A stretch of DNA of 56,568 nucleotides from the IMG/VR virus record IMGVR_UViG_3300045988_108312; one strand, given 5' to 3'. Positions 695 to 43,230 of the stretch are shown here, in pieces. Every line of letters begins with the position of its first letter. Within the stretch, counting starts at the first letter, position 1. The DNA is from a virus. The notes beneath the pieces were generated by a model, which ran no database searches, was not told the origin of the DNA, and saw only the letters and a program-made list of their open reading frames with translations. Made by a program: the position numbers and the translations under genes.

Positions 695-2056
695 ATGGAA
701 TGTGTCGCATATATGCGTGTTTCTACGGAGAAACAGGCAGAAGAGGGAAACGGATTAGAAAGTCAAAGGAGAGATATTGAGAATTATTGCAGGAAAAATG
801 AACTGGTAATTACAGATTGGTATATTGATGATGGGTACACAGGCGCAAATATGGACAGACCAGAATTGCAACGGCTTGTATCAGACTGTGATCGTAAGCG
901 CGTAGGCTATGTTGTTGCTTTCAAACTGGATAGAATATCACGTAGCATGGTGGACGGTATCTATCTGATTGAGCGTGTGTTTTTAAAGAACAACGTAGAG
1001 TTTAAGTGTGTACATGATAGTATCAGCTATGATAATCCAATGGAGCAGGCTTATACACAGATGATGGCAGTATTCGCACAACTTGACAAGAATACAATGC
1101 TGTTGCGCATGCGTGGTGGAATGTTAGAACGTGTCAAACAAGGCTACTGGATGGGCGGTGGGAATCTTCCATACTGCTATACATACAGCAAAGATACAGG
1201 AACACTTATACCAATTTCAGAACGCAAGGAACAGGCAAACAAGGCAATGGACTTGTTTTTACAGGGATATTCGGATGTAAAAATCCGTGATATGTTGGGA
1301 TTTAAAAGCGAATTTGTTGTGAAGCAGGTACTTACAAGCCCTGTGAATATTGGAATGATACCGTATAAGGGGAATATCTATCAGGGATTGCATGAACCTA
1401 TATTTAATAAGGAAGTGTTTGAAAAAGCCCAACAATTCAGAGCAATAAGGAAAAACAAAAGGGCAAGTTGCCATAACATCCAAACTAACTTATTGACAGG
1501 TTTGTGTTACTGCGGAATTTGTGGATGCGCTATGAGGTACCAGAAGTGGACGCATGGAAAACATAAGATTTACTGTTGTTCCAGGAATAAGGACTTGCAT
1601 TATCTTCCTAACCACAATCCAAATTGTAATAATACCTTGGAATGGGCTTCGGATATTGAAAAAGCTGTAGAGGACGAAATACTTTTAATATCTGCTAATA
1701 TATCAGACTATAAGCCAAGAGTAAAAGAATCTAAATTGGAAATATTGCAAGGGCAATTAGAAAAAGAGCAGACTAAGCGTAAAAGGCTATATAACCTGTA
1801 TGCAGAGGGTAATGATGATGTTATCGGCATGATTAAAGAAATTGAGAAAGTAATAGAAAATATCCGTGAACAGATCAAGGAAGAATCTGCAATAGAAACA
1901 AATAAAACTAGACAAAATGTATTTAAGAACATAAAAAATCTTGCCGACATTTGGGAAGATATCGACAAGAAACAAAAAAATATGTTACTAAAAAGTATAA
2001 TTGAAAAAATCATAATTAGCAATGGAAATATTGAGATAAAATTGAAAGATTTTTAG
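695..2056 (+). CDS. int: Large serine recombinase (phage integrase)
   Basis: ORF track 653..2056; ATG 695 lies 7 nt after GGAGG (683-687); resolvase motifs YMRVSTEKQ...FKLDRISRS, recombinase domain, Cys-rich zinc ribbon CYCGICGC..YCCS, C-terminal coiled coil. Confidence 0.9.
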   Translation: MECVAYMRVSTEKQAEEGNGLESQRRDIENYCRKNELVITDWYIDDGYTGANMDRPELQRLVSDCDRKRVGYVVAFKLDRISRSMVDGIYLIERVFLKNNVEFKCVHDSISYDNPMEQAYTQMMAVFAQLDKNTMLLRMRGGMLERVKQGYWMGGGNLPYCYTYSKDTGTLIPISERKEQANKAMDLFLQGYSDVKIRDMLGFKSEFVVKQVLTSPVNIGMIPYKGNIYQGLHEPIFNKEVFEKAQQFRAIRKNKRASCHNIQTNLLTGLCYCGICGCAMRYQKWTHGKHKIYCCSRNKDLHYLPNHNPNCNNTLEWASDIEKAVEDEILLISANISDYKPRVKESKLEILQGQLEKEQTKRKRLYNLYAEGNDDVIGMIKEIEKVIENIREQIKEESAIETNKTRQNVFKNIKNLADIWEDIDKKQKNMLLKSIIEKIIISNGNIEIKLKDF

Positions 2057-2086
2057 CACTACTATAATGCTATCCAATGGTATATA

Positions 2087-2123
2087 TTTACTGCTAATAT
2101 AGGTATATTAATTTAGCAGTAAA
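2087..2123. other. Candidate attP core: perfect 11-bp inverted repeat TTTACTGCTAA / TTAGCAGTAAA separated by 15 bp
   Basis: Read directly; lies 31 bp downstream of the serine integrase stop; not followed by a T-run, so unlikely to be a terminator. Confidence 0.35.
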
Positions 2124-2261
2124 ATAACGCCATACCCATGGCATGGGGTTAGTGCTAATGTGCATATTTACTACACTTTTGAGTCATTATAGTGGCAATT
2201 ATTAGGCGCTATTAATGGCTCTTTTTGTTTTATGATAATTACAAAGGGAGGAATAGAACCC

Positions 2262-2417
2262 ATGAATATTGAAACGGACGAAATCATAGAGAAGTTATGC
2301 GCAAGGGAAGATGTGCAGGCAATACCAACAATCTACCAAGTAGCCATGACCCATGCGATACAGGAAGTATTAAAAGATGTTAATGAGAATATGCAATCAA
2401 CAAGAACAGATTACTAA
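2262..2417 (+). CDS. Hypothetical 51-aa protein
   Basis: ATG 2262 preceded by AAAGGGAGG; in-frame part of ORF 2232..2417. Confidence 0.5.
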   Translation: MNIETDEIIEKLCAREDVQAIPTIYQVAMTHAIQEVLKDVNENMQSTRTDY

Positions 2418-2482
2418 ATACCTATCTTATGATGATACGAACATATTATATGAGACTGAAAAGCTGAAAAAGGAGAACCAAT

Positions 2483-2968
2483 ATGCAACCGTATGTGAAT
2501 CCATATTACCTACAGCAGAACCAGCAGGGTTATCCGCAGTATTATAACCCACTGGCACAGGTGCAAAACAGATCAATAGATTATCAGCAGAATATACCAA
2601 ACAGTTACCAGCAGAATCAGGTTGTACAGGGAATTAACGGAAAAATAATTGCGGAAATGAGTCAGATAACAGCAAATGATGTACCTATGGACGGTAGTGT
2701 TGCATTTTTCCCAAAGCAGGACTTGTCAGAGGTATACGCCAAGAGCTGGAATGCAGACGGTACAATCCGCACAGTTACTTATAAGCCTGTTTTGGATAAC
2801 GAGCCTAAGACAGCACCCGGACCAGAAAAAATTAAGTGTGACCTATCGGAAGAATCCTCACAGAATATTATGAACAAGTTTGATGAAATATCTGACAGGC
2901 TGGGGCAGTTAGAAAAATCTTTGCAATCCCAAAGAAAAACTTCACAGACGCAAAGAAAGGATGAGTAA
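2483..2968 (+). CDS. Hypothetical protein with Q/N/Y-rich (prion-like composition) N-terminus
   Basis: RBS AAAGGAG; first ~50 aa MQPYVNPYYLQQNQQGYPQYYNPLAQVQN..SYQQNQVVQ are Q/N/Y dominated. Confidence 0.7.
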   Translation: MQPYVNPYYLQQNQQGYPQYYNPLAQVQNRSIDYQQNIPNSYQQNQVVQGINGKIIAEMSQITANDVPMDGSVAFFPKQDLSEVYAKSWNADGTIRTVTYKPVLDNEPKTAPGPEKIKCDLSEESSQNIMNKFDEISDRLGQLEKSLQSQRKTSQTQRKDE

Positions 2969-2970
2969 GT

Positions 2971-3207
2971 ATGTTCAATCCAATGCAGTTAATGCAAATG
3001 ATGAGAGGTGGAAATCCACAGCAGATGATTCAACAGCTTATGGGTAATAGTCAGATAATGCAGAACCCTATGGCTAAGAATGCCATGCAGATGGCGCAGA
3101 ACGGAGACACCAAGGGCATTGAGCAGATGGCTAGGAATCTGTGCAAAGAAAAGGGATTGAATCCTGATGAAGCAATGAACCAAATTAAAAAACAGTTTCA
3201 TTTATAA
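2971..3207 (+). CDS. Hypothetical M/Q/N-rich 78-aa protein
   Basis: RBS AAGGATGAG; low-complexity MFNPMQLMQMMRGGNPQQMIQQLMGNSQIMQNPMAKNAMQMAQ. Confidence 0.65.
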   Translation: MFNPMQLMQMMRGGNPQQMIQQLMGNSQIMQNPMAKNAMQMAQNGDTKGIEQMARNLCKEKGLNPDEAMNQIKKQFHL

Positions 3208-3255
3208 AAGCTAATTCTTGCAAGATTAGAAATAAATTTAATGGAGGTAAAAAGT

Positions 3256-4017
3256 ATGTTTTCAAACAATTGTGCATCCGTTCCATTAGTAGCGAATATT
3301 GACGGAAATGGAAATAACAACGGATGGGGAGCAGAAGGCTCATGGTTATGGTTCATTATCGTTATTTTCGCTATCTTCGGATGGGGTGGATTCGGTAACG
3401 GATTCGGAGGAAACGGAATGAATGGCGGTGTCGGAAGCGAAATTCAGCGCGGATTTGATAATCAGGCGGTTGTATCAAAACTTGATGGCATTACAAACGG
3501 ACTTTGTGACGGATTTTATGCAGTGCAAAACGGCATGAATGGCATCAACACAAACATTTTGCAGACCGGATTCGGCATTCAGCAGGCGATCAACGCTGAT
3601 ACGGTTGCTAATATGCAGAATACAAATGCTTTGCAGACACAGCTTGCTAACTGTTGCTGTGAAACCCGTGAAGCTATTCAGGGAGTTAATTACAATTTAG
3701 CAACTAACACCTGTGCTTTGCAGAACACCATGAACAGCAATACAAGAGACATTATCGACAGCCAGCAGGCAGGAACAAGAGCAATTCTTGACTTCTTGAC
3801 CAATGACAAGATCGCATCCTTACAGGCAGAGAATAATGATTTACGCAGAGCCGCTTCACAGGATAGACAGAATGCACTTCTGACAACCGCTATGGCTACG
3901 CAGACGAATCAGATTATTGATGCTGTAAGACCGACACCTGTACCAGCATTTCCTGCATCTAACCTCTACGGTTATGCATACAACGGATGCGGATGTAATA
4001 CAGGATGTGGCTGCTAA
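3256..4017 (+). CDS. Membrane protein: Gly-rich segments flanking one TM helix, Q/N/T-rich helical middle, C-terminal CGCNTGCGC tail
   Basis: ATG 3256 follows GGAGGTAAAAAGT (track start 3241 sits in the RBS); GSWLWFIIVIFAIFGWGGFGNGFGGNG; CCC and CGC..CGC motifs. Confidence 0.7.
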   Translation: MFSNNCASVPLVANIDGNGNNNGWGAEGSWLWFIIVIFAIFGWGGFGNGFGGNGMNGGVGSEIQRGFDNQAVVSKLDGITNGLCDGFYAVQNGMNGINTNILQTGFGIQQAINADTVANMQNTNALQTQLANCCCETREAIQGVNYNLATNTCALQNTMNSNTRDIIDSQQAGTRAILDFLTNDKIASLQAENNDLRRAASQDRQNALLTTAMATQTNQIIDAVRPTPVPAFPASNLYGYAYNGCGCNTGCGC

Positions 4018-4042
4018 AAGTAGCAGCTAAAAGTAGCAGCTA
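4010..4042 (+). repeat. 13-bp tandem repeat GCTAAAAGTAGCA x2.3 spanning the stop codon of 3256..4017; also forms GCTGCTA/TAGCAGC hairpins
   Basis: Read directly: ggctgctaaaagtagcagctaaaagtagcagctacgc. Confidence 0.8.
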
Positions 4043-4116
4043 CGCAAAAATAAATAATTGAGTATCTTAATTGAGTTTAACTCGATCATGTCTGCTATGC
4101 AGTATTACTTAAATTT

Positions 4117-4152
4117 AAAGGGCAGACTTGTATGGTTTGCCCTTATTTTTTT
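4117..4152 (+). terminator. Rho-independent terminator
   Basis: GGGCAGAC-ttgtatg-GTTTGCCC (one G:U) followed by TTATTTTTTT. Confidence 0.7.
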
Positions 4153-4171
4153 AGAAAGAGAGGTAAAGATA

Positions 4172-4591
4172 ATGGAAATTACAGAAATTGCATTACAAAC
4201 AGTTGCCGCCGGCGAAGATGTGTCATTTACAGAAACACCGGTTTGCGGTAGTAAATGTATTGTACACAGACAGGGCAGTGGAATTATTAAATTAAGAGGT
4301 ATTACCAATCAATGCAAGGCTAGATTCCTTGTGTCGTATTCAGGCAACATTCAGATTCCGACAGGCGGTACGGTTGGAGAGATTTCGCTTGCAATCGCGG
4401 TTGACGGAGAGCCTTTGCAGTCAACAAAGATGATCGTAACCCCTGCAGCAGTTGAGAATTTCTTTAATGTATCAGCACAAGCATACGTTGATGTGCCTTG
4501 CGGTTGCTGCAGTACGGTAGCAGTGCAGAATACGTCCACACAGGCTATCGAGGTTCAGAACAGTAATTTGATTGCAGTAAGGGAGGCTTGA
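4172..4591 (+). CDS. 139-aa Cys-containing beta-rich protein resembling the BclA C-terminal (C1q/TNF-like) exosporium domain
   Basis: ATG 4172 after AGAGAGGTAAAG and after the terminator (the track start 4058 crosses it); pattern V.F...G.I.H..GSG.I.L.G...ARFLVSYSGN...GEISLAIAVDGEPL...VAVQN.S...I.V.NSNLIAVR. Confidence 0.5.
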   Translation: MEITEIALQTVAAGEDVSFTETPVCGSKCIVHRQGSGIIKLRGITNQCKARFLVSYSGNIQIPTGGTVGEISLAIAVDGEPLQSTKMIVTPAAVENFFNVSAQAYVDVPCGCCSTVAVQNTSTQAIEVQNSNLIAVREA

Positions 4592-4595
4592 TATT

Positions 4596-5288
4596 ATGCA
4601 TAAGTTTGCGAAACAGATTATGGATTGCGTGAAAGCCCACGTTGATGGCATCGGAATCGAGAATTTTGAGGGTCAAAACCTTGATGATCTTAAGGACTGG
4701 ACGGAGATTGCAAAGAACATCGTATGCTTTGACAAAGACTACCGAATTGTAGAAGCTATGGAAAAATCGGAAGATAACGAAGAAATTATGCGGATGATTG
4801 AAGAGTACGAAGATTACCCGGAACGTAGATTTTATGACAGTTATCGTTATAAGACTACTGGCAGATATGCACCAAAGGGCAGAGGTACGTATGTAGGCAG
4901 ACGTGGCTATGAAGAACCGCCATATATGCACATGATGAACAGGGAAGATTTACAAGACTGGGATTCCATGTCTGAACGTGAGCGTATGCGTGACCTTGAC
5001 AGGGCATCAAGGGGACGTATGTACTATACAGAGACAGAACCCATGCACAAAGACGGTGGTATGAGAGACAGCAGAGAGGGCAAAGCTGGCATGATGCGTA
5101 AGGGCTACATGGAAACCAAAGAAATGCATAAGGGCAGTACACCGCAGGACAAGGAAGCCAATATGCGCAGTCTGGAAGAATATCTGAAAGAATTGTCAGA
5201 GGATTTAACTGGTCTTTTGTCTGATATGACACCAGAAGAGCGTCAAATGGCAAAGACAAAGATTACCACACTTGCGGCTAAGATGTAA
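4596..5288 (+). CDS. Hypothetical highly charged, R/M/E/Y-rich (probably disordered) protein
   Basis: RBS AAGGGAGG; 230 aa, low complexity in the middle (RRFYDSYRYKTTGRYAPKGRGTYVGRRGYEEPPYMHMM...). Confidence 0.7.
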   Translation: MHKFAKQIMDCVKAHVDGIGIENFEGQNLDDLKDWTEIAKNIVCFDKDYRIVEAMEKSEDNEEIMRMIEEYEDYPERRFYDSYRYKTTGRYAPKGRGTYVGRRGYEEPPYMHMMNREDLQDWDSMSERERMRDLDRASRGRMYYTETEPMHKDGGMRDSREGKAGMMRKGYMETKEMHKGSTPQDKEANMRSLEEYLKELSEDLTGLLSDMTPEERQMAKTKITTLAAKM

Positions 5289-5294
5289 GGAAAT

Positions 5295-5326
5295 AGGCTA
5301 GGGCTAATAACTCTAGCCTTTTTTTA
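5295..5326 (+). terminator. Rho-independent terminator
   Basis: AGGCTAG-ggctaataact-CTAGCCT followed by TTTTTTT. Confidence 0.8.
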
Positions 5327-5375
5327 AATAGAACCTTGAAAATAAAATAATGGCTAGAAAATTTTGAAATAGTAC

Positions 5376-5404
5376 TTGACTTATTGTGCGTACTATTATA
5401 TATT
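5376..5404 (+). promoter_or_regulatory. Sigma-A-type promoter
   Basis: TTGACT (5376-81), 17-nt spacer, TATATT (5399-5404). Confidence 0.6.
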
Positions 5405-5435
5405 AAATGTGCGGACAGAAAGTGAGGTGCATAAA

Positions 5436-5609
5436 ATGTCTCCACGCACAGGAAGACCTAAATCTGACAATCCAATGAATGATAGAATTTATGTAAGGGT
5501 AACAAGGGAAGAAAAAAAGGAAATAATGGATTTTTCATCTAAAAATGGTTATACCATACTAGAATTAATCAGAATTGGAATTGAGAAGATAAAAAATCAA
5601 AAAAAATAG
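5436..5609 (+). CDS. Ribbon-helix-helix (CopG/MobC-like) DNA-binding protein
   Basis: ATG 5436 after GTGAGGTG; GRPKSDNPMNDRIYVRVTREEKKEIMDFSSKNGYTILELIRIGI is a typical RHH N-terminal strand plus two helices. Confidence 0.65.
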   Translation: MSPRTGRPKSDNPMNDRIYVRVTREEKKEIMDFSSKNGYTILELIRIGIEKIKNQKK

Positions 5610-6156: not shown

Positions 6157-6849
6157 ATGGCAGAACTTGTAAAGATTGAAAATACAGAAATGGCAATCAA
6201 AGAATATAACGGTATGAGAGTTGTCACTATGAAAGATATTGACAGGGTTCATCATAAAAAATCCGATACGGCAAAGAAGTCATTTCAAAAGCATAAGAGT
6301 CATTTTATACTTGGAACGGATTACTTTGAAATTACAAGAAAAGAGTTAGGGGAACGATATTCCCCCAACGAAAAAATAGTCGGAAATCCCAATATGAAAA
6401 CATATCTCTTTACAGAAAGCGGATATCTCATGATAGTAAAAGTTTTTACGGATGATTTAGCATGGGAAGTACAGCGTCAACTGGTAAACTCTTACTTTGC
6501 GGTCAAGAATCAGATGGAAACAGCAGAACCAAAGATAGAGGATTGCAACTATCATGTCAGCATGACACCTGTACCAAAGACACCTACATGGTATGCAAGG
6601 AATCAGCGCAGGATTGAAAGGATAGTCCAGGCAATACACGGTAAAAAATCACAGTTGTATCATAGAATCCTGTTGTTTGTTGGAGAAGAATACGACCTTG
6701 ATGAAGCCGCTGCTATCTATGAACAGGAAAAGGGATATCCACCAAGATATTCCATGGACATGATTAGTTACTTCCCTGAATTATCAGAGTGCGCAGACAA
6801 ATATTTGGAATGTGCCGAAAAATCCTTAAAGGAAAGTGGAAAATTATAA
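6157..6849 (+). CDS. ORF6N/KilA-N-type DNA-binding protein (phage antirepressor-like)
   Basis: RBS GGGGGA; IKEYNGMRVVTMKDIDRVHHK...HFILGTDYFEI...LFTESGYLMIVKVFTDDLAWEVQRQLVNSYF; paralogue of 40816..41646. Confidence 0.75.
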   Translation: MAELVKIENTEMAIKEYNGMRVVTMKDIDRVHHKKSDTAKKSFQKHKSHFILGTDYFEITRKELGERYSPNEKIVGNPNMKTYLFTESGYLMIVKVFTDDLAWEVQRQLVNSYFAVKNQMETAEPKIEDCNYHVSMTPVPKTPTWYARNQRRIERIVQAIHGKKSQLYHRILLFVGEEYDLDEAAAIYEQEKGYPPRYSMDMISYFPELSECADKYLECAEKSLKESGKL

Positions 6850-37244: not shown

Positions 37245-38120
37245 ATGGCAAAGGCAAATTTACCTGTCAATTTTAAAGACGATATATTAAAAGAAAATAT
37301 GAACGGCAAGCGTAGATTCAAAATGATTCAGAACATTGACGGTACAGTCAGTTTTGAAGATGTGACAGATTATACACAGGTTGGGAGTACATTCGGAGCG
37401 GCGCAGATAAATGCAACAAATGAAGCTGTAAATAATGCGGCAGATGCAAGCAAGATTATTGACAGTTTAGAAACGATAAAAGCAAATACACAGTCTGGAT
37501 ATATTGCTGGGGCATTGGCAGTTAAGGCATTAGATAGTAATTTAGCAAACAATATCGTTAGTGGTTATTCGGATACACCTATAGGCAACGGTAAATCAAC
37601 AGCTACAGTATCAATAAAAATACCATCTGATAACTGTGTAATTATACTTGCACACCCCGAAGATACAAGAGCTACTACGACGTTAGAACTACCAACGGGT
37701 GCAACGTTGCTATTATCAGATATAACAAGTGCAACAGGTGTATATTACAGATGCAGATACTATGTAGTAAAAGTTACAGGAAGAGCTGGAGCTACTCTTG
37801 ACTTCAATTTCACCTCAACGGGAGCTAATAATTATCTGTATATCCGTTATGTAACAATTAATAGCAATGTCTCCACTGCAATGGCAAAAACAAGTTTTGA
37901 AAAAAATAACTTGTATGTAATAGTGAGAAATGTAGACTATAGGGCAATTTATCATGATTTTTATGGTGCTATTTATCAATATTACGACATGCCTTATACA
38001 ACTACTTATTTTGTTAATTATCAAATGGCGAATATAACAGTGCTTAAAGCGTTAGAAGATAGTGAAAGAAATTTAAAAACAAGTGGAAATTATTCTGATG
38101 TTATTATTAAGTTAGAATAA
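37245..38120 (+). CDS. Tail fibre / receptor-binding protein
   Basis: RBS AGGGAGG; conserved N-terminal module plus a divergent C-terminal 190 aa. Confidence 0.65.
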   Translation: MAKANLPVNFKDDILKENMNGKRRFKMIQNIDGTVSFEDVTDYTQVGSTFGAAQINATNEAVNNAADASKIIDSLETIKANTQSGYIAGALAVKALDSNLANNIVSGYSDTPIGNGKSTATVSIKIPSDNCVIILAHPEDTRATTTLELPTGATLLLSDITSATGVYYRCRYYVVKVTGRAGATLDFNFTSTGANNYLYIRYVTINSNVSTAMAKTSFEKNNLYVIVRNVDYRAIYHDFYGAIYQYYDMPYTTTYFVNYQMANITVLKALEDSERNLKTSGNYSDVIIKLE

Positions 38121-38162
38121 CTAAATTACTATTTAATTTATAAAAGAAAGGAGGTATAGCCC

Positions 38163-38879
38163 ATGGCATACCTAAAATTTTTAGATTCACAAAAAATAAT
38201 CCAGTGTATCGTAGTCCCGGAATCGGAACACGTAGTAACACTGAAATTCCATGATGCAGTTGTCGTAGACACAAACGGATTTGATTTGTTCTTAGATGAA
38301 AAAGGAGAACTTGACATTGGCGGTGATTCTTACCACGGATATAATACCGTTTACAGGAATGACGATACAACAGCAGAATATAACGGATATCAGCTTTCTA
38401 ATAACGGTTCTGTTTATGAGGAACAGCCACAGCCAACACCTGTTGAACCGACTCTTGACGAACTGAAAGAGCAGAAGATTGCAGAAATGAATGCGGCACA
38501 GCAGGAATCAATACAGAACGGTGTTGACGTTACCTTATCAGACGGAACAATTGAACATTTCACGTTGACAGACCATGATCAGACAAGCCTTATGGGATTG
38601 CAGACTAAGGTTGCGCAGGGAGAAACACAGATACCGTGGCATACATCAGATGTGAATGAACCATGTAAATACTACAGCAACACGGACATGAGATTGATTA
38701 CGGAAACAGCTATGCAGGCGGTTACGTATGCAGTAACGTATTTCAGAGATTTGCGTATTTATATCAACTCCTTAGAAGATTCTACGTCCGTCCAGAATGT
38801 TACATATGGAATGACTATTCCTGCTGAATATCGTTCAGAAGTGCTTGCGGATATCTACGCAAGTAAAGGTATTGCGTAA
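38163..38879 (+). CDS. DUF4376/XkdW-like tail-fibre-associated protein
   Basis: RBS AAAGGAGG; LDELKEQKIAEMNAAQQESIQNGVDV...FTLTDHDQTSLMGL... pattern (from memory). Confidence 0.5.
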   Translation: MAYLKFLDSQKIIQCIVVPESEHVVTLKFHDAVVVDTNGFDLFLDEKGELDIGGDSYHGYNTVYRNDDTTAEYNGYQLSNNGSVYEEQPQPTPVEPTLDELKEQKIAEMNAAQQESIQNGVDVTLSDGTIEHFTLTDHDQTSLMGLQTKVAQGETQIPWHTSDVNEPCKYYSNTDMRLITETAMQAVTYAVTYFRDLRIYINSLEDSTSVQNVTYGMTIPAEYRSEVLADIYASKGIA

Positions 38880-39288
38880 GATTATCAAGCCACTTATTCT
38901 ATTTGCGATAGGTGGCTTTCTTTATGTGTGCATAGAGCTGTTATATCGTGGTCGTAGCCATTGGACAATGTTCATTCTTGGCGGTTTATGCTTCCTGTAT
39001 GCAGGAGAACAGAACGAACGCACAGACTGGGATTATCCGCTTATCCTGCAATCAATAAAGGTTGCGACAGCAATTACCATATTAGAGTTTGTATGCGGTC
39101 TTATCGTAAATATATGGTTAGGTTGGAATGTATGGGATTACAGCAATATGCCGTTGAATCTGTTAGGGCAGATATGCCTACCATTCAGCCTGTTATGGAT
39201 AATTGTAGGAACGATTGCAATTATTCTTGACGATTATTTGCGGTACTGGATATTCAAAGAAGAAAAGCCACACTACAGATTGCTGTAA
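38845..39288 (+). CDS. Polytopic membrane protein of the 'putative ABC-transporter type IV' (PF06541-like) family; possible lysis accessory
   Basis: GGFLYVCIELLYRGRSHWTMFILGG...WNVWDYSNMPLNLLGQICLPFSLLW; start uncertain (TTG 38845 or TTG 38872). Confidence 0.55.
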   Translation: MRISTQVKVLRKIIKPLILFAIGGFLYVCIELLYRGRSHWTMFILGGLCFLYAGEQNERTDWDYPLILQSIKVATAITILEFVCGLIVNIWLGWNVWDYSNMPLNLLGQICLPFSLLWIIVGTIAIILDDYLRYWIFKEEKPHYRLL

Positions 39289-39305
39289 TTTGTCGAATTT
39301 TACCG

Positions 39306-39329
39306 CAGAATATGTCGAACGTATTTTCT
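39306..39329. promoter_or_regulatory. Operator-like element CAGAATA-tgtc-GAACGTAT-TTTCT (copy 1)
   Basis: Shares the blocks CAGAATA/GAACGTAT/(A/T)TTCT with 39470-39489. Confidence 0.5.
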
Positions 39330-39465
39330 TGAATCCTTGCACTTATAGAAGTACAATAAACTTGTCCACAGTGATGTGGTGCTTCAAGTTCTGGCAGGGG
39401 CGGTATTGCTATTGGCGTGGCGTACCGTCCTGTAACCATACTACAAAACAAATGTTCTAATTTAG

Positions 39466-39494
39466 TTGACAGAATAGAACGTATATTCTATAAT
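39466..39494 (+). promoter_or_regulatory. Consensus promoter (TTGACA, 17 nt, TATAAT) whose spacer is operator-like copy 2 (AGAATA..TATTCT inverted repeat)
   Basis: TTGACA 39466-71; TATAAT 39489-94. Confidence 0.65.
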
Positions 39495-39527
39495 GGTGTC
39501 ATAACATTACGGACAGGGGTTGATTAC

Positions 39528-39695
39528 ATGAATCAGAGTTGTAGAGAGGGCAAGGATATGGCAGGGGATAATGGCAATGATGCAGAATTTTACAAGAGAG
39601 AATCAAAAAAGATGCTAGATGAAATAAAAGATTTAAAGAATTTACAATTCATCTATGTATACATAAAAAGAACAATGAAGTATGAAAAGGACTAG
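39528..39695 (+). CDS. Hypothetical 55-aa protein (moron candidate)
   Basis: ATG 39528 after CAGGGG; own promoter and terminator. Confidence 0.5.
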   Translation: MNQSCREGKDMAGDNGNDAEFYKRESKKMLDEIKDLKNLQFIYVYIKRTMKYEKD

Positions 39696-39724
39696 GGTTT
39701 GCGCAATGCCCTAGTCCTTTTTTT
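39689..39724. terminator. Bidirectional terminator between convergent genes
   Basis: GGACTAGGG-11 nt-CCCTAGTCC flanked by A-run/T-run. Confidence 0.8.
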
Positions 39725-40085
39725 ATTTGTTTGTAATTGCGTCTATCAAATCTTCTAACTTTTGCCAACCATCAGAATCTAGTTTAGCAAGTGCTAAAAT
39801 CAATCTTTTTTGAAAATTATCATCATTAAGATGCTGAACATCAGATAGAAAATTAGATATTTCCGCTTCTTTTGGTAAATTTACAAACATTTCTCCAGTT
39901 CCATTCAAAAGCCATTCTTCATTAACATTAAATTTCTCACATATGTCAGAAATAGTTCTGCTAGATGGTTTTTTTATTCCAGATTCAACTTGCGCTATAA
40001 AATTTCGGGAAAGACCAATCTTTGAAGAAAATTCTTCTTGCGTCAATTCTAAATGACTTCTCAATTTTTTTATTCGTTCATTCAA
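39723..40085 (-). CDS. CI-like repressor (XRE-family HTH)
   Basis: TTG 40085 lies 6 nt after AAAGGAGGG and downstream of the mapped -10; IKKLRSHLELTQEEFSSKIGLSRNFIAQVESGIKKPS. Confidence 0.8.
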   Translation of the reverse strand: MNERIKKLRSHLELTQEEFSSKIGLSRNFIAQVESGIKKPSSRTISDICEKFNVNEEWLLNGTGEMFVNLPKEAEISNFLSDVQHLNDDNFQKRLILALAKLDSDGWQKLEDLIDAITNK

Positions 40086-40107
40086 TATTTTCCCTCCTTT
40101 CATAATT

Positions 40108-40175
40108 ACTATACAACAAAAAAGTCCCCTAGTCAACAAAAAAGTATTGACAAAATGTTTCCAAGGGACTATACT
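40108..40175. promoter_or_regulatory. Divergent immunity promoters with repeats
   Basis: Leftward: TTGACT (rc 40131-36), 17 nt, TATAGT (rc 40108-13). Rightward: TTGACA 40147-52, 17 nt, TATACT 40170-75. CAACAAAAAAGT at 40114 and 40134 (third, shorter copy at 40189). IR AGTCCC/GGGACT. Confidence 0.6.
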
Positions 40176-40640: not shown

Positions 40641-40787
40641 ATGAGTGAAAAGGAAAAGCAGATTGTTGAGAAGTTAAAAGATGCAATCCCTAAAATGTCA
40701 GACTTTGACAAGGGCTATATTCTTGGCAAGGTCGAGAACATGGCAGAAAATTCTGCGAAAAAAGAGGTTTCCGAAAGCAAAGAATAA
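40641..40787 (+). CDS. Hypothetical 48-aa protein
   Basis: RBS GAAAGGAAGTG; below the track cutoff. Confidence 0.45.
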   Translation: MSEKEKQIVEKLKDAIPKMSDFDKGYILGKVENMAENSAKKEVSESKE

Positions 40788-40815
40788 TTTATCAGAATTT
40801 AGGAAAGGAGAAGAA

Positions 40816-41646
40816 TTGAATAAATTAATTCACATTGGAAATGCTGATATTTCCATCAAAGAGTACAAAGGAAAAAGAGTGGTCACGTTTAAGGACATTG
40901 ATATGGTTCATGAAAGACCGGACGGAACAGCAAGAAAAAGATTTTCAGACAACAGAAAGCATTTTGTTGAGGGAGAAGATTATTTCGTTTTGAAACCGTC
41001 AGACCTTGAAAATACTGAACTGTCCGAAAAACGGACACTAGAAAATGTAGTAATGAGTAACTTCGGAACAGCACTCATTACCGAACAGGGCTATCTAATG
41101 TTGGTCAAGTCATTCACGGATGATTTGGCATGGGAAGTGCAAAGAAAATTAGTTTCTTCTTATTTCAATGTACATCAAAGCGTCAACAATCAGTTATCTC
41201 CAGAATTGCAAGCATTGCAAGGACTTCTTAATCAGATGGTTCAAAAAGAACTTGCTGACAAGGAGAGAGACAGGCAGATCGCCAAGGCACAGGAAACAGC
41301 ACAGAAAGCAATAGAAACAACTAACAGTATCAAAGAAGCTGTAAAACCTGTTTTCGATAATTGGCGTGATGAAATCAATGTTAAATTTAATCGTATTCAG
41401 AAAAGTGCATCTACACCATTTAATCTTTTACGTACAGAAATGTATTGTGAATTGGAACGTAGAGCAGGATGCGATTTGTCTACCAGATTAAGAAACCGTA
41501 AACAGCGCATGACTGATAATGGATGCACGAAAACAGAAATTAATAAGTTGAATCGCATGGATGTAATTGAGGAAGATAAGAAATTACGTGAGATATTTAC
41601 AAAAATAGTTTCAGAGTATGAAATTGAGTACTGCGCTTTTAAATAA
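40816..41646 (+). CDS. ORF6N/KilA-N-type antirepressor-like protein (paralogue of 6157..6849)
   Basis: TTG 40816 lies 5 nt after AGGAAAGGAG; IKEYKGKRVVTFKDIDMVHERP...HFVEGEDYFVL...ITEQGYLMLVKSFTDDLAWEVQRKLVSSYF. Confidence 0.75.
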   Translation: MNKLIHIGNADISIKEYKGKRVVTFKDIDMVHERPDGTARKRFSDNRKHFVEGEDYFVLKPSDLENTELSEKRTLENVVMSNFGTALITEQGYLMLVKSFTDDLAWEVQRKLVSSYFNVHQSVNNQLSPELQALQGLLNQMVQKELADKERDRQIAKAQETAQKAIETTNSIKEAVKPVFDNWRDEINVKFNRIQKSASTPFNLLRTEMYCELERRAGCDLSTRLRNRKQRMTDNGCTKTEINKLNRMDVIEEDKKLREIFTKIVSEYEIEYCAFK

Positions 41647-42772: not shown

Positions 42773-42877
42773 ATGGGAGATTTTACAATTGCGGAAGTAG
42801 AAAAAATGTGTGAGGACTTAGGTGTTGGAGTTCTTATCAATGATGGAAAAATCGTAGGATTTGAAGTCGAGGAATGA
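42773..42877 (+). CDS. Hypothetical 34-aa protein
   Basis: Short ORF filling the gap; overlaps the next start. Confidence 0.35.
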   Translation: MGDFTIAEVEKMCEDLGVGVLINDGKIVGFEVEE

Positions 42878-42879
42878 TT

Positions 42880-43230
42880 ATGGATAACAGACTTAGAAAA
42901 ATAGAGAATGCCTTGATTGAAATGGGAATCGAGCCTAGTATGCGTGGATTCTACTATATCGTGGAACTGACTGTAGGAAAGATAATAAATCCGACAAAGA
43001 AACTACAGGATATGTATGACGAAATTGCATCTGAACATGGAATTACAGGCGGTTCAGTCCATAAAGTTGTAACACGCACAGTAGAACTTGCGGACTCAAG
43101 AACTCCTACCTACAAAAAGTATATCGGGAGTGAGTTCAAAACGAACAGCGGTTTTGTTTCCCTACTGGCATTCAACATCAGAAGGGAGCTGGAAGATGAA
43201 CAGGATAACGCTATGCGGAAGGATGAATGA
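42880..43230 (+). CDS. Receiver-less Spo0A C-terminal (DNA-binding effector) domain homologue
   Basis: ATG 42880 lies 6 nt after GAGGA. EMGIEPSMRGFYYIVEL / MYDEIASEHGITGGSVHKVVTRTVELA / KTNSGFVSLLAFNIR align with B. subtilis Spo0A EIGVPAHIKGYLYLREA / [27 protein letters not shown] / KPTNSEFIAMVADKLR (from memory). Confidence 0.7.
   Translation: MDNRLRKIENALIEMGIEPSMRGFYYIVELTVGKIINPTKKLQDMYDEIASEHGITGGSVHKVVTRTVELADSRTPTYKKYIGSEFKTNSGFVSLLAFNIRRELEDEQDNAMRKDE

Follow-up and report, generated by a model that had tools for sequence, protein, structure and literature searches.

The window analysed in this study, the whole 56,568-nucleotide (nt) stretch of viral DNA in IMG/VR record IMGVR_UViG_3300045988_108312, contains a cassette of six co-oriented genes, p1 to p6 (positions 2232–5326), that belongs to a module widespread in phages of Clostridia. 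The content, predicted structures, distribution and integration context of the cassette were investigated, and a membrane-anchored assembly of p4 and p5 is put forward, tentatively, as the best model for its products. The cassette comprises the following features, in which lengths are in amino acids (aa) and ORF denotes an open reading frame.

2262–2417, + strand: p1, 51 aa, a lineage-specific ORF with a Shine–Dalgarno (SD) site
2483–2968, + strand: p2, 161 aa, its N-terminus rich in Q, N, Y and P, followed by a small beta-rich core that is conserved and a helix at the C-terminus
2971–3207, + strand: p3, 78 aa, M/Q/N-rich (M+Q+N = 45%)
3256–4017, + strand: p4, 253 aa (258 aa from 3241), a predicted single-pass membrane protein
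4118–4152, + strand: intrinsic terminator or attenuator in the p4–p5 gap, an 11-bp stem (hairpin 4118–4144) with a T run
4172–4591, + strand: p5, 139 aa with six Cys, predicted to form a stand-alone TNF/C1q-type jelly roll
4596–5288, + strand: p6, 230 aa, with N- and C-terminal helices around a disordered middle rich in R, G, Y, M and D
5295–5326, + strand: closing terminator, a 9-bp stem (hairpin 5295–5319) with T7

The ORF list and the sequence gave six ORFs on the + strand. The original prediction of five co-oriented genes was thus correct in orientation and one short in number, and its own list of products already held six. The internal and final terminators that it placed in the cassette were both recovered in a scan as a hairpin followed by a T run. 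A GGAGG-type ribosome-binding site precedes each of the six ORFs. The first gene may alternatively start at 2232, which gives a product of 61 aa, and in a comparison set of 84 diverse loci drawn from phage records and genome contigs its homologues were present only in L002, L088 and L111, the close relatives of the window. Composition is strongly skewed in several products: Q, N, Y and P make up 69% of residues 1–48 of p2; p4 contains 14% N, 12% G and 10 Cys and ends in CGCNTGCGC; and residues 71–175 of p6, the middle of which is also rich in E, contain 16% R, 11% Y and 10% M. Signal peptides are absent from p2, p3, p5 and p6. None of the six proteins matched a Pfam or NCBIfam family, and the PHROG matches (p2 to phrog_21718, E 7.5e-11; p4 to phrog_16490, E 2.6e-58; p5 to its PHROG family, E 5.7e-69) are all unnamed; homologues from distant loci likewise returned only unnamed PHROGs in Pfam, NCBIfam and PHROG scans. 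The family alignment of p2 had no PDB or Pfam match, p6 had neither a Pfam match nor a PDB match from its family alignment, and an Rfam scan of 1900–5500 found no match. As the earlier reading of the sequence had suggested from the look of the products, no virion or replication family in Pfam, PHROG or NCBIfam matched any of the six. The ORFs are genuine genes rather than chance ones, because p2, p4 and p5 match PHROGs, the p4 and p5 families have at least 7,900 members each and the gene order is conserved in 84 loci.

The original prediction had proposed co-occurrence elsewhere as a check, and across the comparison set the cassette genes do recur as a conserved module. The p4 gene, which with p5 makes up the core pair of the module, lies directly upstream of p5 in 79 of the 84 loci, a p6 family member directly follows p5 in 73, and the p2 family is present in 68. 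The p3 slot is occupied by a Q/M/N-rich protein of 65–87 aa in at least 60 loci and exists in two sequence types: the type of the window in 15 loci and in Clostridium perfringens phage XP41-N3 (E 3.6e-11), and a second type of the same size in 45 loci. Many relatives carry two further genes that are absent from the window, namely g0 (phrog_3754), an upstream gene for a protein of about 127 aa with invariant Cys and His residues, and g6, a downstream gene for a protein of about 110 aa; a PDB sequence-profile search with g0 gave nothing meaningful. Profile searches collected at least 7,925 homologues of p4 and at least 7,990 of p5, and none of these proteins has a name or a Pfam domain. Both families thus comprise thousands of members from gut and rumen phages without a name, a Pfam family or a study, and a literature search found nothing on the module, so a common piece of the biology of Clostridia phages has been left unexplored.

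Cultured carriers exist in Butyrivibrio phage Ceridwen and several C. perfringens phages. Ceridwen contains the full module in the order g0-p2-p3-p4-p5-(HNH insertion)-p6-g6; only lytic growth of this phage was observed, and it was judged virulent by its authors (PMC7372960). The insert between p5 and p6 (L001:8494–9288) encodes 264 aa that, by the look of the sequence, resemble an HNH or homing endonuclease. XP41-N3 (L169:5042–7954) has a reduced module with homologues of p2, p3, p4 and g6, and its p5 slot holds a different Cys-rich beta protein of 125 aa that starts with MTCNRRCNCCNRR; this module stands among early genes, 3′ of an anti-repressor. In crAss-like Buchavirus genomes (L167:5072–7688 and L168:5030–7718), a full-length p4 with in-frame recoded stop codons was found by hidden Markov model (E 7e-37), in the order holin, LysB/FtsL-like gene, DUF7841 protein with an R/G/Y-rich tail, p4 and an unrelated beta-rich protein of 144 aa. 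The 125-aa and 144-aa proteins were considered as DUF4183/Ena-like proteins or p5 homologues, and neither Pfam nor the p5 profile supported this.

Several contigs with p5 were binned to metagenome-assembled genomes of Bacteroidales, Collinsella or Methanobrevibacter. In the Bacteroidales-binned contigs, SD sites precede 73–100% of genes as against 2 of 15 in a crAss locus, the fractions being somewhat inflated by start-site choice. Bacteroidales were rejected as hosts of these contigs on the ground of this Firmicutes-phage-like SD usage; the contigs are probably mis-binned. The module is widespread and common in phages of Clostridia. One locus shows further variation: in L156 a 99-aa rubrerythrin-like protein (3293–3592; Pfam 29.4 bits) stands ahead of p2.

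The fold of p5 was modelled with AlphaFold2 (AF2) from an alignment of 122 database homologues. The model (mean pLDDT 92.3, pTM 0.85) is an all-beta sandwich of ten strands that superposes on the C-terminal domain (CTD) of BclA, and its conserved Cys are C48 and the pair C112-C113. The Foldseek comparison with the PDB gave the following matches, in which TM is the template-modelling score.

F-BclA CTD, 9h38: E 8e-9, TM 0.70–0.73
BxpB, 8d02: TM 0.75
ExsFA/ExsF, 7r5i, 7r1m and 9h3d: TM 0.66–0.76
BclA CTD, 1wck: TM 0.67 (1wck, 2z5w and 3tyj, TM 0.67–0.69)
EDA-A1, 1rj7, and several entries of 4-1BBL: among the top fold matches
Phage fibre and spike knobs, 8ke9 and 9eul: listed among the matches

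The strand pattern like that of the BclA exosporium domain, which had earlier been noticed by eye together with a proposal to run Foldseek on AlphaFold models, is therefore borne out: p5 models as a TNF/C1q jelly roll whose best matches are F-BclA, BxpB/ExsFA and BclA. Stand-alone phage proteins in BFVD share the fold, and annotators had named two of them 'BclA protein'. At the level of sequence, a PDB profile search with p5 returned no BclA, BxpB or ExsF and nothing meaningful. The p5 family is a new sequence family of known fold. It comprises 944 clusters at 50% identity, and no p5 relative among the best 150 cluster representatives carries an added domain, because none of these is longer than 196 aa. 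A collagen GXY stalk and an N-terminal exosporium leader in one polypeptide are thus not seen, p5 being the domain alone; a p4–p5 fusion, sought as Rosetta-stone evidence, was likewise not found among these 150 representatives.

Alignment of the p4 family revealed a conserved order of an acidic N-tail (about 30 aa), a hydrophobic transmembrane helix, a Gly/aromatic linker, a helical domain (about 150 aa) in which a CCC motif is invariant, the motif P.P.PAY.V.NP and a CGC..GCGC tail. The AF2 model of p4 places helices at 29–41, 70–95 and 105–224. The transmembrane segment is conserved, with a mean hydropathy of 2.2. Across 144 homologues, K and R average 0.26 on the N side and about 2 in the first 40 residues after the helix, and the N side has fewer K and R than the C side in 94% of them. 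An N-out/C-in topology is predicted from this charge bias and the positive-inside rule, and a cytoplasmic C-terminal domain agrees with the finding that p2, p3, p5 and p6 lack signal peptides. Of the likeness of p4 to YjcZ-type sporulation membrane proteins, suggested earlier from composition, only the Gly-rich transmembrane composition stood; p4 has no NCBIfam match (E up to 1).

From these features we propose a stalk-and-knob assembly of p4 and p5, anchored in the membrane and coated or chaperoned by p2, p3 and p6, which we hold as the best model with a confidence that stays somewhat short of even. In this proposal p4 would span the cytoplasmic membrane, the short acidic N-tail being exposed outside and the helical stalk of about 150 residues and the Pro/Cys-rich tail reaching into the cytoplasm. 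A TNF-like trimer of p5 would cap the p4 tail, possibly in the way that the ExsF/BxpB trimer receives the Pro-rich leader peptides of the exosporium; a Pro-rich peptide occupies the cleft of the ExsF trimer in the ExsF/F-Anchor complex 9H3D (PMC12357932). The conserved Cys may cross-link p4 with p5 or bind metal, and the low-complexity proteins p2, p3 and p6 could coat or chaperone the assembly as matrix or chaperone. Such an assembly would line the inner face of a membrane in the infected or lysogenic cell with a proteinaceous layer of stalks and knobs. The confident TNF/BxpB-like fold together with a membrane-anchored coiled coil provides a concrete and testable structural model.

Several results weigh against this assembly. 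The proteins p2, p3 and p6 belong to no named family in Pfam, NCBIfam or PHROG and have no function that can be named. Neither p5 nor its L125 homologue matched Pfam PF18573 (BclA_C; E up to 1), and the NCBIfam exosporium-leader model matched none of the six cassette proteins. The AF2 model of p4 is poor overall (pLDDT 56), and Foldseek found no structural neighbours for it. Charge bias is the sole basis of the p4 topology and analogy that of the docking of the p4 tail to p5. The unrelated small beta proteins in the p5 slot of the C. perfringens and crAss-like phages mean that p5 is not obligatory, and the sequence motif found upstream of the module in relatives, described below, is weak in the window itself.

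The assembly was compared with known systems of similar parts. It is like the BxpB/ExsFA-BclA nap of the Bacillus cereus group, including ExsF-F-Anchor/F-BclA of F-ENA, in that p5 is a stand-alone jelly roll of about 140 aa, agreeing in both fold and size with a BxpB/ExsFA-type anchor; in that the conserved Pro-rich peptide of p4 recalls the leader that docks into the ExsF trimer; and in its Cys-rich partners without signal peptides. Unlike the nap, the module has no collagen repeats and no BclA_C or leader sequence match, its partner protein is a membrane-anchored coiled coil, its genes are phage-borne and it is also present in a phage of a non-sporulating host. With TNF-superfamily ligands (EDA-A1, 4-1BBL), p4 and p5 together share the arrangement of transmembrane anchor, stalk and TNF-homology knob, whereas the parts of the module are on two polypeptides, its stalk is predicted to lie in the cytoplasm, the reverse of the ligand topology, and is a coiled coil in place of collagen or a linker, and there is no sequence relationship. 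The operon as a whole matches no described system.

The coiled coil and the knob might instead belong to the virion, with p4 as a fibre shaft, p5 as a distal TNF-like knob of a head or tail fibre or decoration, and the remaining proteins as chaperones. TNF/C1q knobs tip many phage fibres, and p5 matches the fibre of cyanophage A-1(L) (8ke9) and the phi812 spike; crAss annotators labelled p4 'viral fiber/spike'; and 11 of the 84 loci have the module flanked by the gene for the minor head protein on one side and the scaffold/major capsid genes on the other. The conserved hydrophobic helix of p4 and its membrane-type charge bias speak against a fibre shaft, as does the lack of any p5 fused to a shaft among the best 150 representatives. 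The module is also insulated by terminators and mobile, whereas structural genes keep their synteny, and in the window it stands apart from the structural operon (18–39 kb). Dulem virus 35, which has the module in its head gene cluster, is yet temperate and has a normal lysogeny module elsewhere; placement in the head cluster is therefore no proof of a structural role. We regard a virion component as very unlikely.

The neighbourhood of the module in other phages raises the question of lysis. Lysis families (endolysin, amidase and holin) dominate the upstream neighbours, and at least 25 of 56 loci have an endolysin no more than 3.5 kb upstream of the module. In L156 (5696–7447), a BhlA-like protein with a transmembrane segment plus coiled coil and a 474-aa lysin stand directly 3′ of p5 in place of p6. 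On this evidence p4 could be a long BhlA/XhlA-like protein that works with holin and endolysin in lysis or egress, while the other products tune timing or envelope breakdown. Such holin-like proteins resemble p4 in having an N-terminal transmembrane segment, a cytoplasmic coiled coil and endolysin neighbours; in the crAss-like phages a holin and a LysB/FtsL-like gene precede p4; and the virulent Ceridwen carries the module. Unlike BhlA and XhlA, p4 is three to four times longer and has Gly-rich, CCC and Cys-tail motifs, and no holin family in Pfam, PHROG or NCBIfam matches it, BhlA and XhlA included. The site behind the lysis genes is, moreover, a classic insertion site of morons, so adjacency to lysins is ambiguous. 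In the window, a long distance separates the module from the late genes and terminators of its own bound it, the 11 loci noted above have it in the head gene cluster, and we know of no precedent in lysis cassettes for a TNF-like knob with three low-complexity proteins. A lysis accessory is accordingly considered unlikely.

The proposed stalk-and-knob operon has the build of an independent unit. The following features of the window bear on its regulation, placement and integration (HTH, helix-turn-helix; att, attachment site).

308–520, + strand: LuxR/GerE-type HTH protein, 70 aa (Pfam GerE, 27.5 bits, cut-off 23.5)
695–2056, + strand: large serine integrase, 453 aa (467 aa from GTG at 653)
2115–2165, no strand: attP, with the crossover in CCCATG (2135–2140) and imperfect inverted repeats on its flanks
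2228–2241, + strand: weak copy of the upstream motif, TTTTATGATAATTA, a promoter-like or operator candidate, the upstream hairpin having decayed in the window
42874–43230, + strand: stand-alone Spo0A_C domain protein (Pfam E 2e-06, 28.2 bits, cut-off 25)

Of the 65 loci with enough upstream DNA, 36 encode a homologue of the LuxR/GerE-type protein (65–85 aa) no further than 1.5 kb ahead of the module. In typical relatives the regulator gene is followed by a terminator hairpin, a promoter-like motif and then the first module gene, and a hairpin with a T run lies upstream of the module in most relatives. The motif consists of a T-run and TGC(N)AAAAT(T/A)T(A)..GCATA, or TTTTTATGC(N)AAAAT(T/A)T(A)..GCATA, and 28 of 71 loci have it in the 400 nt that precede the module, the background rate being 0.068 per 400 nt. 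In the window the integrase and attP separate the regulator from the module, as if an int-attP unit had been inserted into a regulator-module unit. A hairpin and T run, GC-rich in the stem, occupy the p4–p5 gap in 49 of 79 loci, and the remaining gaps measure 11–32 nt. Only about 20 nt lie between the hairpin at 4118–4152 and the start of p5, which leaves no room for a promoter; the hairpin is probably an attenuator that sets p2–p4 above p5–p6, and in the proposed assembly the stalk and p2 and p3 would thus be made in greater amount than the knob and p6.

The insertion point differs among related genomes, being behind the lysin, in the head cluster or behind int/attP, the last in the window lineage and in Dulem virus 39. 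Given its insulation, including a downstream terminator, its own promoter-like element and its variable placement, the module is a horizontally mobile, self-contained accessory operon of phages, of the 'moron' type. Like lambda bor/lom, HK97 gp15 and the att-adjacent toxin genes of Firmicutes phages, it has terminators on both sides, a promoter-like motif and an insertion point that varies in syntenic genomes, often behind lysis genes or beside att. It differs from these in comprising five to seven genes in one conserved operon, in bringing its own regulator and containing an internal attenuator, and in being found in a virulent phage as well.

A moron-like build, a position near att and a predicted membrane-anchored protein at its core would also suit superinfection exclusion or another membrane-acting prophage defence, the more so as the majority of complete carriers are temperate (the phage of the window and Dulem viruses 33, 35 and 39). 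The make-up of the module argues otherwise, with five to seven conserved genes whose low-complexity products look structural; to our knowledge no exclusion system resembles it. The module is also carried by a virulent phage and, in part, by crAss-like phages. Defence is the least probable of the roles weighed here and appears most improbable.

The integration site was resolved from related contigs. As the original prediction had it, the cassette stands next to int/attP: the large serine integrase, with Resolvase, Recombinase and Zn_ribbon_recom domains (Pfam) and a match to the phrog_95 integrase (E 3e-102), and attP are directly upstream. Among contigs with an identical integrase, L171–L174 have the integrase followed by the module, the arrangement of the circular form, L173 and L174 being circles, while in L170 (11340–11932) and L176 the integrase is followed by a 162-aa Sigma70_r3/r4 fragment and host genes. 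Contigs with an identical p2 (L178, L180 and L183) show on the + strand the order ftsW-murA-ftsQ-ftsZ-spoIIGA-sigE, a 100-aa Sigma70_r2 fragment and p1 to p6. Both integrated (L170, L178) and circular (L173, L174) forms therefore exist. Comparison of the sites gave attP as AACGCCATACCCATGGCATGGGGTTAG, attR as AACGCCATACCAATGATCATGGGCGAG and attL as TACGCAGTTCCCATGGCATGGGGTTAG. The host is an uncultured member of the Lachnospiraceae labelled 'Roseburia sp.' by NCBI.

The two sigma fragments are the halves of SigG, the loci concerned being L178:5290–5800 and L170:11340–11932. This assignment follows from the position after sigE, from the name SigE given by NCBI to the neighbour and from the likeness of the fragments to SigG of Bacillus subtilis. 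The gene is split at the region 2 codons A-V/I-P-M. Its N-terminal part of 97 aa reads MAISKVEICGVNTSKLPVL...STYAVPM and is closed by AWG and a stop codon, and its C-terminal part of 162 aa reads MIMGEIRRFLRDNNAIRVSRSL.... A serine recombinase beside the att site and a split sporulation ORF are thus both seen, as in skin in sigK, SPbeta in spsM and gin in gerE (PMC4191935, PMC5595907). What sets this element apart is that it is an entire 57-kb phage, found in circular form too, and that its target is the gene of a forespore sigma factor. In Bacillus, sigG is expressed in the forespore, while coat and exosporium are built by the mother cell; excision in the mother cell would therefore not rescue a forespore gene such as sigG. 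With SigG truncated after residue 97, lysogens would not finish spores unless the phage excises. A literature search found no report of a prophage that interrupts sigG.

In the lysogen, TAG 2150–2152 ends the SigG′ frame, and 109 nt further along that strand is the start of p1. A + strand scan of 2056–4118 detected no terminator, hence none between sigG′ and p1, so the operon could be transcribed in the lysogen from the sigG promoter and by read-through from spoIIGA-sigE. In the excised circle it could be transcribed by read-through from the integrase. A sigma-70 consensus scan of the + strand from 2056 to 2262 found no promoter. A sigma-G/F-type match (GCATA-18 nt-CATTATA, 2162–2191) lies 70 nt upstream of p1; as a promoter it was retained as no more than a weak lead, with four + strand matches against 1.35 expected and no conservation in L088. 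Two other prophage lineages with the module, in L088 (7421–8219; Lachnospira intestinalis) and L107 (6603–8019), are inserted at this sigG site the other way round; the 3′ half of sigG is on the − strand there and adjoins the module, and the att core is near-palindromic. Capture of the host promoters would thus be specific to the lineage of the window. An intact sigG-like gene was seen elsewhere, in L143 (5339–6109, − strand), about 2.6 kb downstream of the module and with 57–67% identity to the host SigG halves; it could be either the host gene or a phage-borne sporulation-type sigma factor.

This context bears directly on the original prediction that the cassette alters the spore surface by lysogenic conversion. 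Under that reading, the proteins would be made in the lysogen sporangium and enter the coat or exosporium, forming a BxpB/BclA-like nap cross-linked through Cys and Tyr. Part of its basis stood. In structure, p5 is matched best by exosporium proteins of Bacillus; the products have no signal peptide, as expected of mother-cell coat proteins, and are rich in Cys, Gly and Tyr, and the hosts are Clostridia. The operon of this phage is directly behind spoIIGA-sigE-sigG′, and the phage encodes, besides the GerE-type regulator, the Spo0A_C-like protein that had been noticed near 42880 and that scored above the Pfam cut-off. Other parts did not stand. Truncation of SigG would be expected to block development before coat maturation unless the phage excises, and sigG is a forespore gene whereas coat and exosporium belong to the mother cell. 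The full module is carried by Ceridwen, which was judged virulent and whose host, Butyrivibrio fibrisolvens, is non-sporulating; crAss-like phages of Bacteroidales keep p4; and the phages in L088 and L107 are integrated in sigG the other way round. The long domain of p4 is predicted to lie inside the cell rather than on the surface, and the TNF fold is also common in phage fibres, as the PDB and BFVD matches illustrate. Conversion of the spore surface is therefore doubtful, and we consider it improbable.

The general role of the module is probably not spore-specific, because Ceridwen carries it, crAss-like phages keep p4, SigG is truncated and sigG belongs to the forespore and the coat to the mother cell. 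A link to the spore does carry some weight for this particular phage, given its integration into sigG, the sporulation promoters upstream, the Spo0A_C protein and the exosporium-like fold of p5. The Spo0A_C protein could act on 0A boxes, for example at the spoIIG promoter. A bolder version of the stalk-and-knob proposal joins these elements: insertion into sigG would block sigma-G and at the same time put the operon under the spoIIG and sigG promoters, which act at sporulation onset and in the forespore, with help from Spo0A_C, so that the phage would remodel the membrane of an arrested sporangium or forespore to its own advantage, for instance into a phage-carrying dormant cell, while the operon class would represent a new, widespread and intracellular membrane-bound assembly. 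This combined scenario is speculative and, taken in full, quite improbable. A phage that interrupts sigG with promoter capture appears to be undescribed. As a complete and active phage that sits in sigG and places its cargo operon after spoIIGA-sigE-sigG′, it would be a novel instance of prophage interruption of a sporulation gene, in this case that of a forespore sigma factor, and the integration bears on the loss or regulation of sporulation in gut Lachnospiraceae.

Other genes of the window were also inspected. From the tail genes to the anti-repressor at 40681 (37245–40139), no recognisable endolysin was found, and the ORF at 37245–38120 (291 aa) had no PHROG match. The ORF at 38845–39288 encodes a CmpB-like membrane protein and that at 39723–40139 (− strand) an XRE-type HTH protein. 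Two anti-repressor paralogues (6157–6849 and 40681–41646), both assigned to phrog_4608, are located in separate parts of the genome.

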